From a virus (taxonomy: Duplodnaviria > Heunggongvirae > Uroviricota > Caudoviricetes), in IMG/VR virus record IMGVR_UViG_3300029702_000330: 34,527 bases of DNA; one strand, 5' to 3'. A model generated the notes under the pieces. The model saw nothing but the letters and a program-made list of their open reading frames with translations, was not told the origin of the DNA and ran no database searches. Shown here one piece after another: positions 4,224 to 19,682 of the stretch. Positions within the stretch are counted from its first letter, which is position 1. Each line of letters starts with the position of its first letter. The position numbers and the translations under genes were made by a program.

Positions 4224-4415
4224 TTAAAGACCTGCCGGGATTTCGATATTATCCTGGTGAATAACTTTATCGACCGGGTAACAGTTACCGGGAATTTTCT
4301 GTTCGGTTGCTGCAGTCATACACTCCTGCATTGTCCTGTGAACACTGACTGCAATATCAACTGGCACTCCGGAAACAAGAAAAACTGTCAGAACAAGTGC
4401 AAATGCTGAATTCAT
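4224..4415 (-). CDS. Hypothetical small protein with N-terminal signal-peptide-like hydrophobic segment (63 aa)
   Basis: 'MNSAFALVLTVFLVSG...' hydrophobic N-terminus; AAGGA-like RBS; ATGA overlap with the upstream small ORF. Confidence 0.3.
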   Translation of the reverse strand: MNSAFALVLTVFLVSGVPVDIAVSVHRTMQECMTAATEQKIPGNCYPVDKVIHQDNIEIPAGL

Positions 4416-4600
4416 TGTGCACATCCTTTTGGCATCAGACGTAAACGAGCCAGCATTGAAACAATGCATATTTTATTTAATAGCTCCCGTTCTTGTTTTC
4501 TCTTGTTAATGGCATCTTCAGTAAATACAGGGTTACTGATAGTGACACCAATTTCAAAACAACCTTCAGACGTATTAACGTTTGGTAATAACGTTTTCAT
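4412..4600 (-). CDS. Hypothetical small early-left protein (62 aa)
   Basis: Internal Met of a 97-aa ORF preceded by GAGGA 7 nt upstream; stop overlaps the next start (ATGA), suggesting translational coupling. Confidence 0.3.
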   Translation of the reverse strand: MKTLLPNVNTSEGCFEIGVTISNPVFTEDAINKRKQERELLNKICIVSMLARLRLMPKGCAQ

Positions 4601-5086
4601 TATCGCGTCCTCAACAATGAATTTTGTGATGCAGTGCCTGGTGCCTCCAGGTGACGTTAACCAGTTAACAATTAACGTCGGATACAGAGAATCCACCCAT
4701 AACACTGTTTTTGGTTTTAACTGTTCCGCGTGCGCTTAGCCGCATTCACCGCATCACAAAATTCACTTTAAAAACGGCGGCAGAGCAGTCACGGAGTAAA
4801 ACTGATACCGCCAAACGTCACCAGAAAATTGATAACAGAGGGCGTTGCAGCGGGGTTGTCACTTAAGCGTATGGTCAACCTGACAACTCGGTGTCCTCAA
4901 CGGGGAAGGAATAACCCCGCCATACTTACCGCCGCGCCATTTTGCGGGTTGCCACAACCGGAAGCGCACGGTCGAATTAAATTTAACGACACCGTACAGT
5001 GAGACGAACTTCGCCGTGCGCTTTCGTGTTGTGTGCCTGCTTTTAACCACGTCAGGCGAGGTGGTATCCTTAAAATCACCACAGTT

Positions 5087-5662
5087 TTAAGGATTCATTA
5101 AGCAATGTCGCAACCACCAATAAATCCGCTTAAGAACATGAAAATTGATTACTGGTATAAAGCGCTTACAGTTGTTGGCGCTGCGTTGTTTGTCTTTAAT
5201 GGAACGTCTTTTTTTGACAGATATCCCGTTGTTCCATTGGGTTTTTTGTCCTCCGGCATCTTTTTTATTGGTTTGGGGGAGTGGATTAATCACCCTCTCA
5301 AAGTGAGATTTATTGATCCTGGAGTTTGGACTCGTGGATATAATCGTTCTTCGTGCGCACTCAGTATCATCTTCGACATACTTGGTTGTTTCCTGATTGT
5401 TACAGGAGTCGTCAAGTTCTTCTGATGTAAAACCGCAAATGGGGCACGTAACGGGAATTTTGAAAAGCGTTTCTCCGGGTTCCAGAACAAAATTTTCTGC
5501 GGTCTGATTTTGCTTCTCATATTTGTGCTCCGCGTCATTGTGAGAGCACATTCTTATTCTGAGTGCCTGTTTAAACTCACTGAAGCTGAGAGCTTCTTCG
5601 CCTTCGGCAAGGCCTTCGAAGTATTCTTCGTAAGCCTTTTCCATGATTGTGTCGAAATCCAT
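5087..5662 (-). CDS. Hypothetical acidic protein with CxxC motif (191 aa from internal Met); C-terminal part overlaps an antisense membrane ORF
   Basis: Start ATG at 5662 lies 1 nt after the TGA of the upstream gene with GGTGA RBS; N-terminal 80 aa acidic with 'CPICGF'; C-terminal 110 aa is K/R/N-rich and may be antisense shadow. Confidence 0.4.
   Translation of the reverse strand: MDFDTIMEKAYEEYFEGLAEGEEALSFSEFKQALRIRMCSHNDAEHKYEKQNQTAENFVLEPGETLFKIPVTCPICGFTSEELDDSCNNQETTKYVEDDTECARRTIISTSPNSRINKSHFERVINPLPQTNKKDAGGQKTQWNNGISVKKRRSIKDKQRSANNCKRFIPVINFHVLKRIYWWLRHCLMNP
5105..5425 (+). CDS. Putative small integral membrane protein (about 3 TM segments), antisense to the 3' half of the 5087-5662 ORF
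   Basis: Three hydrophobic stretches ('ALTVVGAALFVF', 'VVPLGFLSSGIFFIGLG', 'ALSIIFDILGCFLIVTGVV'); RBS weak, so uncertain. Confidence 0.3.
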   Translation: MSQPPINPLKNMKIDYWYKALTVVGAALFVFNGTSFFDRYPVVPLGFLSSGIFFIGLGEWINHPLKVRFIDPGVWTRGYNRSSCALSIIFDILGCFLIVTGVVKFF

Positions 5663-5663
5663 A

Positions 5664-5819
5664 TCACTCACCTGAGTTTCTTTCCAGCCAGCGACGGGCA
5701 CCATTTTCGGTTTTAAACGTTTTGCTTTTGGTATACGTCATCGCGGTGAACGTGCCGTCCTGGTTGGGGAACACGCCACATACCAGAGATTCGCTGTTGC
5801 CAAGATCGATAGTATCCAT
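5664..5819 (-). CDS. Hypothetical small protein (51 aa), first gene of the leftward early operon
   Basis: Internal Met with GAGG 5 nt upstream; sits just downstream of an operator-like palindrome and is coupled to the next gene. Confidence 0.4.
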   Translation of the reverse strand: MDTIDLGNSESLVCGVFPNQDGTFTAMTYTKSKTFKTENGARRWLERNSGE

Positions 5820-5934
5820 GCTGACCTCATTTCCCCTTAACGCCGGGGTAGCGGAACTGTTTGCTGAGAACACCGTGCGGTGTCTTGATGGAAAGTAATT
5901 TAGAATAACCTAACATAAGAGGCAAGTGTTTTTT

Positions 5935-5950
5935 GTTAGATTAGTCTAAC
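5935..5950. promoter_or_regulatory. Operator-like 16-bp palindrome GTTAGA-N4-TCTAAC (distal, on the leftward-operon side of the repressor gene)
   Basis: Perfect inverted repeat read directly; same half-sites recur twice in the repressor/cro intergenic region. Confidence 0.45.
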
Positions 5951-5987
5951 AAAAAGAGTGGGCGCAACTAATCACTTGAAAAGAATG

Positions 5988-6395
5988 TTATTTTATTGAT
6001 TTATTTTTACGCGCTTTAAGCATTTCTTCGAAGAGTTTGTTGAAGTTTTCTACTCTTGCGCGCATTTCAGACAGCAAGGCTTCCTGCTCGGAAGATGGAA
6101 GAGCATCGAATAATTCGATCAATTCTTTGTGGTTGGGAGTTAGCTCTGTTTCCACATGAAGTTCTTGTGCCGGCACTGGTGCCTTGTCTTCGTCACCAAA
6201 CATTAGCCATGTAGGTGAGCACTTCAGAGCATCCGCTAAAGCAAACAATCGTTTTCCGACTGGCTGGGTTTCGTCTCTTTCCCATTGTGAAATTGTGACG
6301 TGAGCAACCCCAGCGAGGCGCGCAGCTTCTCGTTGTGTTAAGCGTAATTCTTTTCGTCGCGCCAGAACTCGCTGGCCTAGGGTTCTTGTATCCAT
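5988..6395 (-). CDS. Prophage repressor, XRE-family HTH (CI/DicA-like)
   Basis: 135-aa ORF with N-terminal HTH 'LRLTQREAARLAGVAHVTISQWERDE'; divergent from a Cro-like gene; resembles DicA of Qin from memory. Confidence 0.85.
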   Translation of the reverse strand: MDTRTLGQRVLARRKELRLTQREAARLAGVAHVTISQWERDETQPVGKRLFALADALKCSPTWLMFGDEDKAPVPAQELHVETELTPNHKELIELFDALPSSEQEALLSEMRARVENFNKLFEEMLKARKNKSIK

Positions 6396-6396
6396 A

Positions 6397-6461
6397 GTTA
6401 GGTAATTCTAATTTTTCTTGACTTAGGTATCCCGCGCACAATAATGTTAGAAAAGTCTAAC
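6397..6461. promoter_or_regulatory. Divergent promoter/operator region: two operator copies (6397-6412 imperfect GTTAGGTAATTCTAAT; 6446-6461 perfect GTTAGAAAAGTCTAAC) flanking a sigma70-like promoter (TTGACT 6418-6423, -10 CATAAT 6440-6445)
   Basis: Palindromes and promoter hexamers read directly; the perfect operator lies immediately downstream of the -10 and upstream of the Cro-like start. Confidence 0.5.
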
Positions 6462-6472
6462 AATAGGAGGCT

Positions 6473-17699: not shown

Positions 17700-18060
17700 G
17701 GTAATATTAAATCGGAACATTTACATCGCGGAATGTAAAATTTAAATAAAAAGGACTCTTCCATGAGCCAAAATTCCTGAAATCTTAAGGGTAAGATAAA
17801 AGGTCTTAATCAGAATGACACTTTTATTAATAAATAAAGCTATTCTTTCATTGCTGTGTTTTTCTTTACAAAAGTAATCCTTGCTATGGGTGGTTAATCA
17901 TGCGTTAATGGTGTTCTGGTTTGTTACAAATTTATCTGAAGCAGTCATTGTTATAATTTTATTATTTGTATCTCTTGAGATTTCCTTGTTGGTTTTTCTC
18001 TCTGATATTTTTTTTCGGACCATTCTGCCCAAGGGCTAATTTCTTCAAAAGGTAATAATT

Positions 18061-18273
18061 ATGTCTAACAAAATGACTGGTTTAGTGAAATGGTTTAACC
18101 CTGAAAAAGGTTTTGGTTTCATCACGCCGAAAGATGGCAGCAAAGATGTGTTTGTCCATTTCTCAGCAATTCAGAGCAACGATTTCAAAACATTAACTGA
18201 GAATCAGGAAGTTGAATTTGGTATTGAGAACGGACCTAAAGGTCCTGCCGCTGTTCATGTAGTGGCGCTTTGA
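18061..18273 (+). CDS. Cold-shock protein family (CspI-like), 70 aa
   Basis: '[37 protein letters not shown]' canonical CspA-family sequence; long AT-rich 5' leader. Confidence 0.9.
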
Positions 18274-18472
18274 GGTAGACAATATTACAAACCATATTCA
18301 CTTTAGATGCCCGTGTTGTCATGGTTCCCAGTATAGAACATCATCTTTTGATGTTTCTGACATGAATCCTTTCGGGGCAAAATGTATCTTTTGTAAATCA
18401 ATGATGATTACATTTGATAATATTTCACAATACTTAAATGCCAGCCGTCTGTCGTTGGATTTAAAAAAGTGA
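18263..18472 (+). pseudogene. Zinc-ribbon paralogue of the 15754-15924 gene lacking a canonical start codon (possible pseudogene or non-canonical start)
   Basis: Frame encodes 'RCPCCHGSQYRTSSFDVSDMNPFGAKCIFCKSMM...', same CxCC...CxxC pattern as the other zinc-ribbon gene; no ATG/GTG/TTG upstream of the first Cys cluster; followed by a terminator hairpin at 18478-18500. Confidence 0.3.
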
Positions 18473-19271: not shown

Positions 19272-19682
19272 TTAGCGTGGTAAGATCTGTGTAGTTTTCT
19301 GGATGCTTTCAGTAAATAGTAATGAGTTATCAAAGGTATAGTAATATCTTTGCTGTTCCTGGATATTTGTAACCCATCGGAAAACTCCTGCTTTAGCAAG
19401 ATTTTCCCTGTATTGTTGAAATGTGATTTCTTTTGATTTCAACTTATTATAGGAGGTCTCTATAAGATGTTTGTTTCTGGAGAATTTAACATTTACAACC
19501 TTTTTGAGTCCTTTTACTAACACTATGTTGTCGTTTTCTAACACAATGTGAATATTATCTGTGGCTAAATAGTAAATATAAAGTGAGACATTGTGACGTT
19601 TTAGCTCAGAATAAAATAATTCACAGTTTAAATCTTTACGCACTTGATCGAATATTTCTTTAAAAATGGCAGCCTGAGCCAT
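19272..19682 (-). CDS. Hypothetical prophage protein (YdfO/DUF1398-like), 136 aa
   Basis: GGAAGG RBS 7 nt before the internal Met at 19682; family assignment from memory only. Confidence 0.5.

Follow-up and report, generated by a model that had tools for sequence, protein, structure and literature searches.

The immunity region examined here carries two perfect inverted repeats, one on either side of a gene for a small helix-turn-helix (HTH) repressor, which raises the question of whether a single repressor controls both of the early operons that flank it. A sequence-only reading of the window (the whole stretch of 34,527 nucleotides that was analysed) had proposed exactly this, with an OL/OR-like layout of operators and, possibly, repression by looping. 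Profile searches and comparisons with annotated loci identify the genes of the region as those of a DicA/DicC-type switch (Table 1). The repressor recovers the Pfam HTH_3 family and is 57% identical to DicA of Escherichia coli K-12; a Pfam search of its 135 residues recovered HTH families only and gave no match to the Peptidase_S24 domain. Its residues 1-71 match the N-terminal domain of P22 C2 (1adr, 2r1j; E=1e-18), with ~45% identity by tblastn, and are followed by a short helical C-terminal part, for which AlphaFold2 predicts two helices in what is, however, a poor model built from the single repressor sequence (mean pLDDT 52). The divergently encoded Cro-like regulator belongs to the Pfam P22_Cro family (PF14549), is 86% identical to K-12 DicC and is preceded by an AGGAGG Shine-Dalgarno sequence (6465-6470). 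Downstream of dicA on the same strand are found ydfA, DicF, dicB, ydfD and a gene for a RecE-like exonuclease; the translation of the dicB ORF presumably contains the K-12 DicB sequence.

The wider context of these genes points in the same direction. A prophage that lies beside rspAB in E. coli TUM14759 and possesses integrase, excisionase, lysis, head and tail genes shares 97-99% identity with the window, and a near-identical E. coli locus beside rspAB is annotated with ydfA, ydfB, dicB, ydfD, hokD and rem. The match to the TUM14759 prophage indicates that the window is related to Qin, the cryptic prophage of K-12, and is of full length. Of 5426 complete E. coli genomes, 537 (~10%) contain a stretch that covers at least 80% of the 1.8-kb immunity region, and every sequence-level feature tested that defines a Qin-type immunity region was found in the window. 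We consider it very probable (roughly 0.87) that the window represents a lambdoid prophage of Qin type and full length, in which a DicA/DicC switch using the inverted repeat TGTTAG-N6-CTAACA serves as the immunity region.

Table 1. Features of the immunity region and of associated genes, in window coordinates
Feature	Coordinates	Strand	Basis or remark
dicB, cell-division inhibitor	4412..4600	-	annotated dicB in L100, at the matching position
DicF small RNA	4775..4826	-	Rfam RF00039, 72.5 bits (gathering score 48)
ydfA homologue, first dicB-operon gene	5664..5819	-	Pfam DUF1391; annotation of the near-identical E. coli locus
Predicted dicB-operon promoter, dicBp (PL analogue)	5897..5925	-	read from the sequence
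Site 4, degenerate copy, TGTTAGGTTATTCTAAAT (minus strand)	5898..5915		
Site 3, perfect operator, TGTTAGATTAGTCTAACA	5934..5951		inside a 26-bp palindrome, 5930-5955
dicA-type repressor, 135 aa	5988..6395	-	NCBIfam NF007257, 224.7 bits (cut-off 101), full length
Site 2, degenerate copy, AGTTAGGTAATTCTAATT	6396..6413		counterpart of K-12 'Oa'
Putative dicA promoter -10, TAGAAT	6405..6410	-	T-A-x-x-A-T hexamer conserved across immunity types
dicC promoter (PR analogue), TTGACT (6418-6423), 16-bp spacer, AATAAT (6440-6445)	6418..6445	+	promoter scan, 10/12 matches
Site 1, perfect operator, TGTTAGAAAAGTCTAACA	6445..6462		counterpart of K-12 Oc
dicC-type Cro-like regulator, 75 aa	6476..6703	+	NCBIfam NF007282, 165 bits (cut-off 130)
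Rem homologue	about 11826..12077	+	tblastn, 96% identity to K-12 Rem over 83 aa

The repeats themselves prove to be four in number. Perfect 16-bp palindromes had been placed at 5935-5950 (GTTAGATTAGTCTAAC) and 6446-6461 (GTTAGAAAAGTCTAAC) and an imperfect copy at 6397-6412 (GTTAGGTAATTCTAAT, two mismatches), and all three are present at these positions; the count of three, however, overlooked a further copy at 5899-5914 (TTTAGAATAACCTAAC), likewise with two mismatches. The pattern GTTAGANNNNTCTAAC (GTTAGA-N4-TCTAAC) matches the window perfectly twice, as against 0 matches in 100 dinucleotide-preserving shuffles. When up to two mismatches are allowed, four matches are recovered against an expectation of 0.79, a count that was reached by 1 of the 100 shuffles, and the proposal that the motif should be confined to regulatory sites is borne out, as all four fall within the two intergenic regions bordering the 135-aa ORF. 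The minimal core TTAG-N6-CTAA is found solely at the same four sites (4 copies in the 34.5-kb window against 0.28 expected), with the degenerate copies, sites 2 and 4, each retaining one full GTTAG half-site together with the exact spacing of this core. The left palindrome is longer than had been noted, spanning 26 bp with an 11-bp stem. That such repeats are merely chance palindromes in intergenic DNA might be entertained on the grounds of a short half-site and the high AT content of these regions, but the shuffles, the number of core matches and the conservation of the positions across 76 related loci refute this explanation and leave it a negligible probability.

The sequence requirements of the operator were delineated by comparison of the K-12 locus, three phage records, 15 genome loci and 80 IMG/VR loci. 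Conservation was assessed over a set of 76 loci with a repressor helix 2 of the TQR..A[RK] type, which fall into three clades and encode repressors 54-100% identical to the window protein. Site 1 occurs in 13 and site 3 in 18 distinct versions in this set, and when the two are combined variation affects 3 of the 24 columns of the 6-bp half-sites, as opposed to all 12 columns of the central spacers (Fisher p=3.6e-7). Fixed half-sites around a variable centre are the signature of an operator for a dimeric HTH protein, and the true core, as defined by this comparison, is TGTTAG-N6-CTAACA. The previously proposed motif GTTAGA-N4-TCTAAC does match perfectly in the window, but positions 7 and 12 vary in the relatives and do not belong to the conserved core; the two perfect sites read TTGTTAG ATTAGT CTAACAA and TGTTAG AAAAGT CTAACA. 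At up to three mismatches the refined 18-mer recovers 14 matches in the whole window against 11.7 expected, i.e. it is not enriched, and site 2, with three mismatches, is at chance level by this measure. Since the 18-mer is thus uninformative for weak sites, the exact TTAG-N6-CTAA core was used for them instead, and the support for site 2 comes from this core and its conserved position rather than from the motif score alone. Counted from the start and stop of dicA, the four sites occupy the same positions in K-12 and the window, at -59.5/-58.5, -9.5, +44.5/+45.5 and +79.5/+81.5, respectively.

Loci encoding repressors with other helix-2/3 sequences carry other palindromes at the equivalent positions. 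Those with SQAALGK-type repressors (PPompW, Enterobacter) possess CCTTAG-N6-CTAAGG, while further members of the family display ATTGAG-N4-CTCAAT, TGTTGAG-type or TAAC-N4-GTTA sequences. The operator sequence therefore changes together with the repressor type across the family.

The positions of the sites with respect to the promoters are likewise suggestive of operators. The dicC promoter of the window occupies the same position as K-12 dicCp; it had been read as TTGACT/CATAAT, of which TTGACT holds, but CATAAT is absent from the sequence, the -10 element being AATAAT. Site 1 directly follows this -10, in agreement with the earlier placement of one palindrome immediately downstream of the promoter, and overlaps its last base and the predicted transcription start (centre +1.5). 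Site 2 adjoins the dicA start codon, lies 4 bp upstream of the dicCp -35 and includes the putative -10 of dicA. On the far side of dicA, the predicted dicBp combines a -35 TTGCCT (5925..5920), a 17-bp spacer and a -10 TAAATT (5902..5897). It aligns with TTGACC-N17-TAATCT of K-12 and with other family members, and is treated as a prediction because its hexamers match in 8 of 12 positions, under the threshold of the promoter scan. Just upstream of its -35 is an A-run, which we take to resemble an UP element. One palindrome had been assigned to the leftward early promoter, and site 3 indeed lies over this A-run just upstream of the predicted -35 (centre about -52.5); site 4 is situated between the -35 and -10 (centre about -16.5), its outer half overlapping the -10. 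Hence, the part of the OL/OR-like layout that stands is that the sites flank the repressor gene; each promoter region, however, has two spaced sites (36 and 49 bp, or 3.4 and 4.7 helical turns, from centre to centre) and not a lambda-style tripartite operator. A third operator resembling 'Om', placed between sites 1 and 2, was considered, but the K-12 palindrome ATGTTAACAAAAACAT has no counterpart in the window.

The promoter of dicA itself might lie within site 2. A T-A-x-x-A-T hexamer is present 6-9 nt before the dicA ATG in every immunity type compared, in the window as TAGAAT at 9 nt, and this ATG lacks a Shine-Dalgarno sequence. The conserved hexamer and the missing Shine-Dalgarno sequence together suggest a dicA -10 inside site 2 and a dicA mRNA with a very short leader or none at all, comparable to the transcript from lambda PRM. 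Such a promoter would be positioned back-to-back with the dicCp -35, at a distance of 7 bp.

The left palindrome could also be imagined to act at the level of RNA, as a hairpin that ends or stabilises the dicA transcript, given that on the dicA-sense strand the 26-bp palindrome would fold into its 11-bp stem 38 bp past the dicA stop, in a region with no other terminator-like structure between dicA and dicBp. The stem is, however, A/U-rich and followed by A's with no U-tract, and the same palindrome with a different loop is found at dicCp, a place at which no transcript should end. Moreover, fixed half-sites with a free centre and no need of compensatory changes constitute the pattern of a protein-binding site, and the K-12 counterpart of site 3 is not a perfect palindrome. 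A role in RNA is thus highly improbable, and its specific version as a terminator was rejected, with an 11-bp A/U stem devoid of a U-tract and no terminator-like site found within 5880-5990, between dicA and dicBp.

Experimental data on the homologous switch of K-12 provide considerable clues regarding the function of these operators. K-12 DicA binds a 20-bp inverted repeat, Oc (TTGTTAGTCATAACTAACAA), both in vivo and in electrophoretic mobility shift assays with crude extracts of DicA-expressing cells, and a single A-to-C change in Oc abolishes this binding (Yun et al. 2012, PMC3441716). At Oc, DicA represses dicC and is also needed for the transcription of dicA (PMC3441716). Oc is annotated at -8..+12 of the dicC start, and the promoter dicCp was mapped by 5'RACE. 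The repression amounts to about 700-fold for dicC and 22-fold for dicBp (PMC3441716, PMC10448788), the latter being the promoter upstream of ydfA, whose activity rises 22-fold upon deletion of dicA (Ragunathan et al. 2023, PMC10448788). The DicA antirepressor Rem derepresses dicBp 165-fold, DicC contributes to the bistable switch, and dicBp is not induced by mitomycin C, its spontaneous induction being RecA-independent (PMC10448788). The DicA site at K-12 dicBp has been rated as low-evidence and its location called unknown (eLife 2020); DicA finds no mention in the main text of a ChIP compendium paper (PMC12059191), and no annotated operators of the present immunity type were found in phage records.

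The identity of the half-sites to those of Oc, the repression of both dicC and dicBp in K-12 and the covariation of operator and repressor together support the control of both early promoters by DicA, as the sequence-only reading had proposed. This support is by analogy with the experimentally studied Qin dicA/dicC/dicBp switch, to which the locus is homologous and for which such control is already published. For the window we infer the hexamers of dicAp and dicBp, the parts that sites 2 and 4 play and binding by its own DicA allele, which shares 57% identity with that of K-12.

A narrower interpretation would admit only the two perfect palindromes as DicA operators and regard the degenerate copies as conserved -10 elements or preferential DicC sites. 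In that event sites 2 and 4 would add little to DicA repression, and their outer halves would be retained as the -10 hexamers TAAATT of dicBp and TAGAAT of the putative dicAp. The counterpart of site 2 in K-12, Oa, was reported not to be bound by DicA alone (in vivo assay, data not shown; PMC3441716), which makes independent binding of DicA at site 2 doubtful. The corresponding segment (TTAGAAT, TTAAGAT or TTAGCAT) is conserved across immunity types with differing strong operators, in keeping with a role other than DicA binding, as is the chance-level score of site 2 with the refined motif. In addition, conservation is far higher in DicC than in DicA (86% versus 57%), and the strongest binding of DicC in ChIP-seq occurs on either side of dicA, at the palindromic motif TT(A/C/T)G...C(G/A/T)AA (PMC11430063). 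This motif is looser (TTNG...CNAA) and fits all four sites of the window. Nevertheless, the complete GTTAG half-site and the exact TTAG-N6-CTAA spacing kept by each degenerate copy speak against this interpretation. The inner half of site 4, further, tracks the repressor type, being TGTTAGG in TGTTAG-type and TCTTAGG in CCTTAG-type loci next to a constant outer TCTAAAT, and it lies where repressors classically bind, between the -35 and -10. On balance, the restriction of DicA to the two perfect sites is possible but not favoured; site 2 by itself may belong to DicC, or be occupied only when the concentration of repressor is high.

The suggestion of looping can be evaluated by means of the distance between the strong sites. 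DicA dimers on the two consensus sites, which are separated by 511 bp, could in principle be joined via their C-terminal parts and loop out dicA, much as lambda CI loops between OL and OR, making the repression of dicCp and dicBp cooperative. The strong sites flank dicA, and in 69 of 75 loci the distance between them is exactly 511 bp, K-12, with a repressor that shares only about 55% identity, being among these; DicA's C-terminal part is highly conserved; and cooperativity would help a protein as scarce as DicA, for which a 2020 survey quotes about 20-25 copies per cell (eLife 2020). In other clades, though, the distance is 518 and 545 bp (and about 548 bp, as judged by eye, in CCTTAG-type loci), and 511, 518 and 545 bp differ by non-integral numbers of helical turns, so that no helical phase is conserved between clades. 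The constancy within clades is explained by a gene of fixed length without indels, and comparative spacing therefore gives looping no support. A search of the literature found no report of a DicA oligomer above the presumed dimer, and K-12 dicBp is still repressed at a distal locus away from dicCp (PMC10448788), which indicates that looping is not required for repression. We accordingly regard a loop as improbable.

Under the preferred reading of the locus as a Qin-type switch with operators at both early promoters, the following mechanism can be proposed. DicA, with its P22-C2-like HTH and no cleavage via RecA, most likely binds TGTTAG-N6-CTAACA as a dimer. When bound at site 1 it would cover the dicCp -10/+1 region, blocking dicC and with it the replication and late genes. 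Binding at site 3 would take place within A-rich DNA immediately upstream of the dicBp -35 and, together with that at the weaker site 4, would keep ydfA-DicF-dicB-ydfD-exonuclease-xis-int silent. The weak site 2 is likely the place where dicA is shut off by DicC or by excess DicA, in the manner of lambda OR3. The switch would be flipped by the Rem antirepressor of the same prophage along with DicC, and not by cleavage of the repressor. The reported autoactivation of dicA could, hypothetically, mean that RNA polymerase at dicCp no longer occludes the dicA promoter. A more elaborate two-plus-two design can also be envisaged, in which the weak sites are hybrids of operator and -10, dicA is near-leaderless, its autoactivation is occlusion relief and DicA also serves as a roadblock or looped clamp. 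The latter is proposed because the clade has no intrinsic terminator before dicBp to prevent dicA read-through into the toxic dicB operon; taken as a whole, this design is speculative and rather unlikely.

In E. coli, the DicA switch bears on the induction of prophages, on filamentation and on resistance to phages. Its design principle has already been published for Qin of K-12, and the present finding is correct and known in kind. What is added is, first, a common second repressor allele that shares the same half-sites, occurs in ~10% of complete E. coli genomes and resides in a full-length prophage; second, a clean comparative definition of the operator as TGTTAG-N6-CTAACA, with four sites, including the previously overlooked fourth, in a fixed geometry; and third, sequence-level candidates for the DicA sites at dicBp, the location of which was called unknown in the 2020 survey (eLife 2020).

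Among known systems the closest is Qin of K-12, which shares with the window the gene order (dicC followed by the divergent dicA, ydfA, ydfB, DicF and dicB), the rspAB neighbourhood, the repressor and Cro families, the half-sites TTGTTAG-N6-CTAACAA, the four-site geometry and the Rem antirepressor. The strong site lies over the dicCp -10/+1 in both, with the site 1 centre of +1.5 matching -8..+12 in K-12. They differ in the repressor allele, which is only 57% identical, in the distal site at dicBp (site 3), a perfect palindrome in the window with two mismatches in K-12, and in completeness, K-12 Qin being a remnant and the window prophage a full-length one that has genes for integrase, exonuclease, lysis, head and tail.

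The immC region of P22 has in common with the window a C2-like N-terminal HTH, a P22_Cro-family Cro protein and a divergent PR/PRM layout with PL beyond the repressor gene. The P22 operators are likewise inverted repeats of 18 bp whose central part is free, and their half-site consensus differs from TGTTAG. They occur as three adjacent sites per promoter, as opposed to two widely spaced ones in the window, and C2 is a protein of 216 aa with an S24 autocleavage domain, while DicA, of 135 aa, lacks S24. P22 is induced by RecA-mediated cleavage and the DicA type by an antirepressor (in K-12, PMC10448788).

With the CI/Cro system of lambda the DicA switch shares the bistable repressor/Cro logic, the action of the repressor at both early promoters and, in the case of K-12 DicA, a self-stimulated repressor promoter; lambda OR3, like site 2, is a weak site over the maintenance promoter. 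The tripartite OL/OR arrangement of lambda is absent, with no third TTAG-N6-CTAA copy at either promoter of the window, and the 135-aa protein has no CI-type C-terminal domain for oligomerisation and autocleavage (S24). The activating site in lambda is at -42, whereas the strong site of the window lies upstream of the putative dicA start by about 55 bp, from which we infer that activation may occur by occlusion relief and not by contact with sigma. The Gifsy prophages, with a short non-cleavable repressor and a small prophage-encoded antirepressor, resemble the pair of DicA and Rem; what sets K-12 apart is that dicBp did not respond to mitomycin C and that its spontaneous induction was independent of RecA (PMC10448788).

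In all immunity types, covering the degenerate operator copy of the window (6396-6413) and its equivalents in the collected related loci (L001-L099), the dicA ATG is preceded at a distance of 6-9 nt by a -10-like hexamer (TAGAAT, TAGCAT, TAAGAT or TATATT), and no Shine-Dalgarno sequence is found before it. This combination suggests that the dicA mRNA is nearly leaderless. Published work has attempted to locate the dicA promoter without success. The dicA allele of the closest complete genome, that of E. coli TUM14759 (L100, 7988-8394), is annotated as a frameshifted pseudogene; that of the window is intact.

At the other end of the gene, the gap that separates the stop codon of dicA (5988) from the inferred dicB-operon promoter dicBp (window 5880-5990) contains no intrinsic terminator, and the corresponding gap of E. 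coli K-12 likewise lacks one. A hairpin followed by a T-run, with the hairpin being G+C-rich in most cases, is present in this gap in five of the related loci (L003, L004, L007, L011 and L015). Unless blocked, dicA read-through would enter the toxic dicB operon, and the operator-bound repressor is possibly such a block. Away from the immunity region, the sole further match to the refined operator with at most two mismatches (TGTTGTCGTTTTCTAACA, 19526-19543) apparently lies within a DUF1398 gene, as placed by coordinate offset, and is probably due to chance.

Other genes and RNAs of the window
Feature	Position	Strand	Remarks
205-aa ORF	5087-5704	-	ydfB-like beginning (…MDFDTIMEKAYEEYFEGL…)
604-aa ORF	9011-10825	+	GmrSD_N (DUF262) domain; PADLOC matches NsnA, PD-T4-2_A
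Sok antisense RNA	11285-11459	+	hokD-type toxin module
Rem antirepressor homologue	11826-12077	+	96% identical to K-12 Rem
cspA-type thermoregulator leader	15014-15406	+	
cspA-type thermoregulator leader	17915-18300	+	

The region 8708-11206, which contains the 604-aa ORF, does not align to the otherwise near-identical TUM14759 prophage, where a P-loop ATPase of the Sll1717 family is found in its place; it looks like a swappable defence-gene slot. The two thermoregulator leaders correspond to cspB and cspI as annotated in that prophage. The 205-aa ORF, for which a Pfam search matched no family, extends far past the length of K-12 YdfB (42 aa); the annotation of the near-identical E. coli genome gives ydfB as a pseudogene that is truncated. 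Finally, Rem is strongly conserved between the window and K-12 despite the divergence of the DicA alleles, which are only 57% identical; therefore, the conserved C-terminal part of DicA may be the target of Rem.
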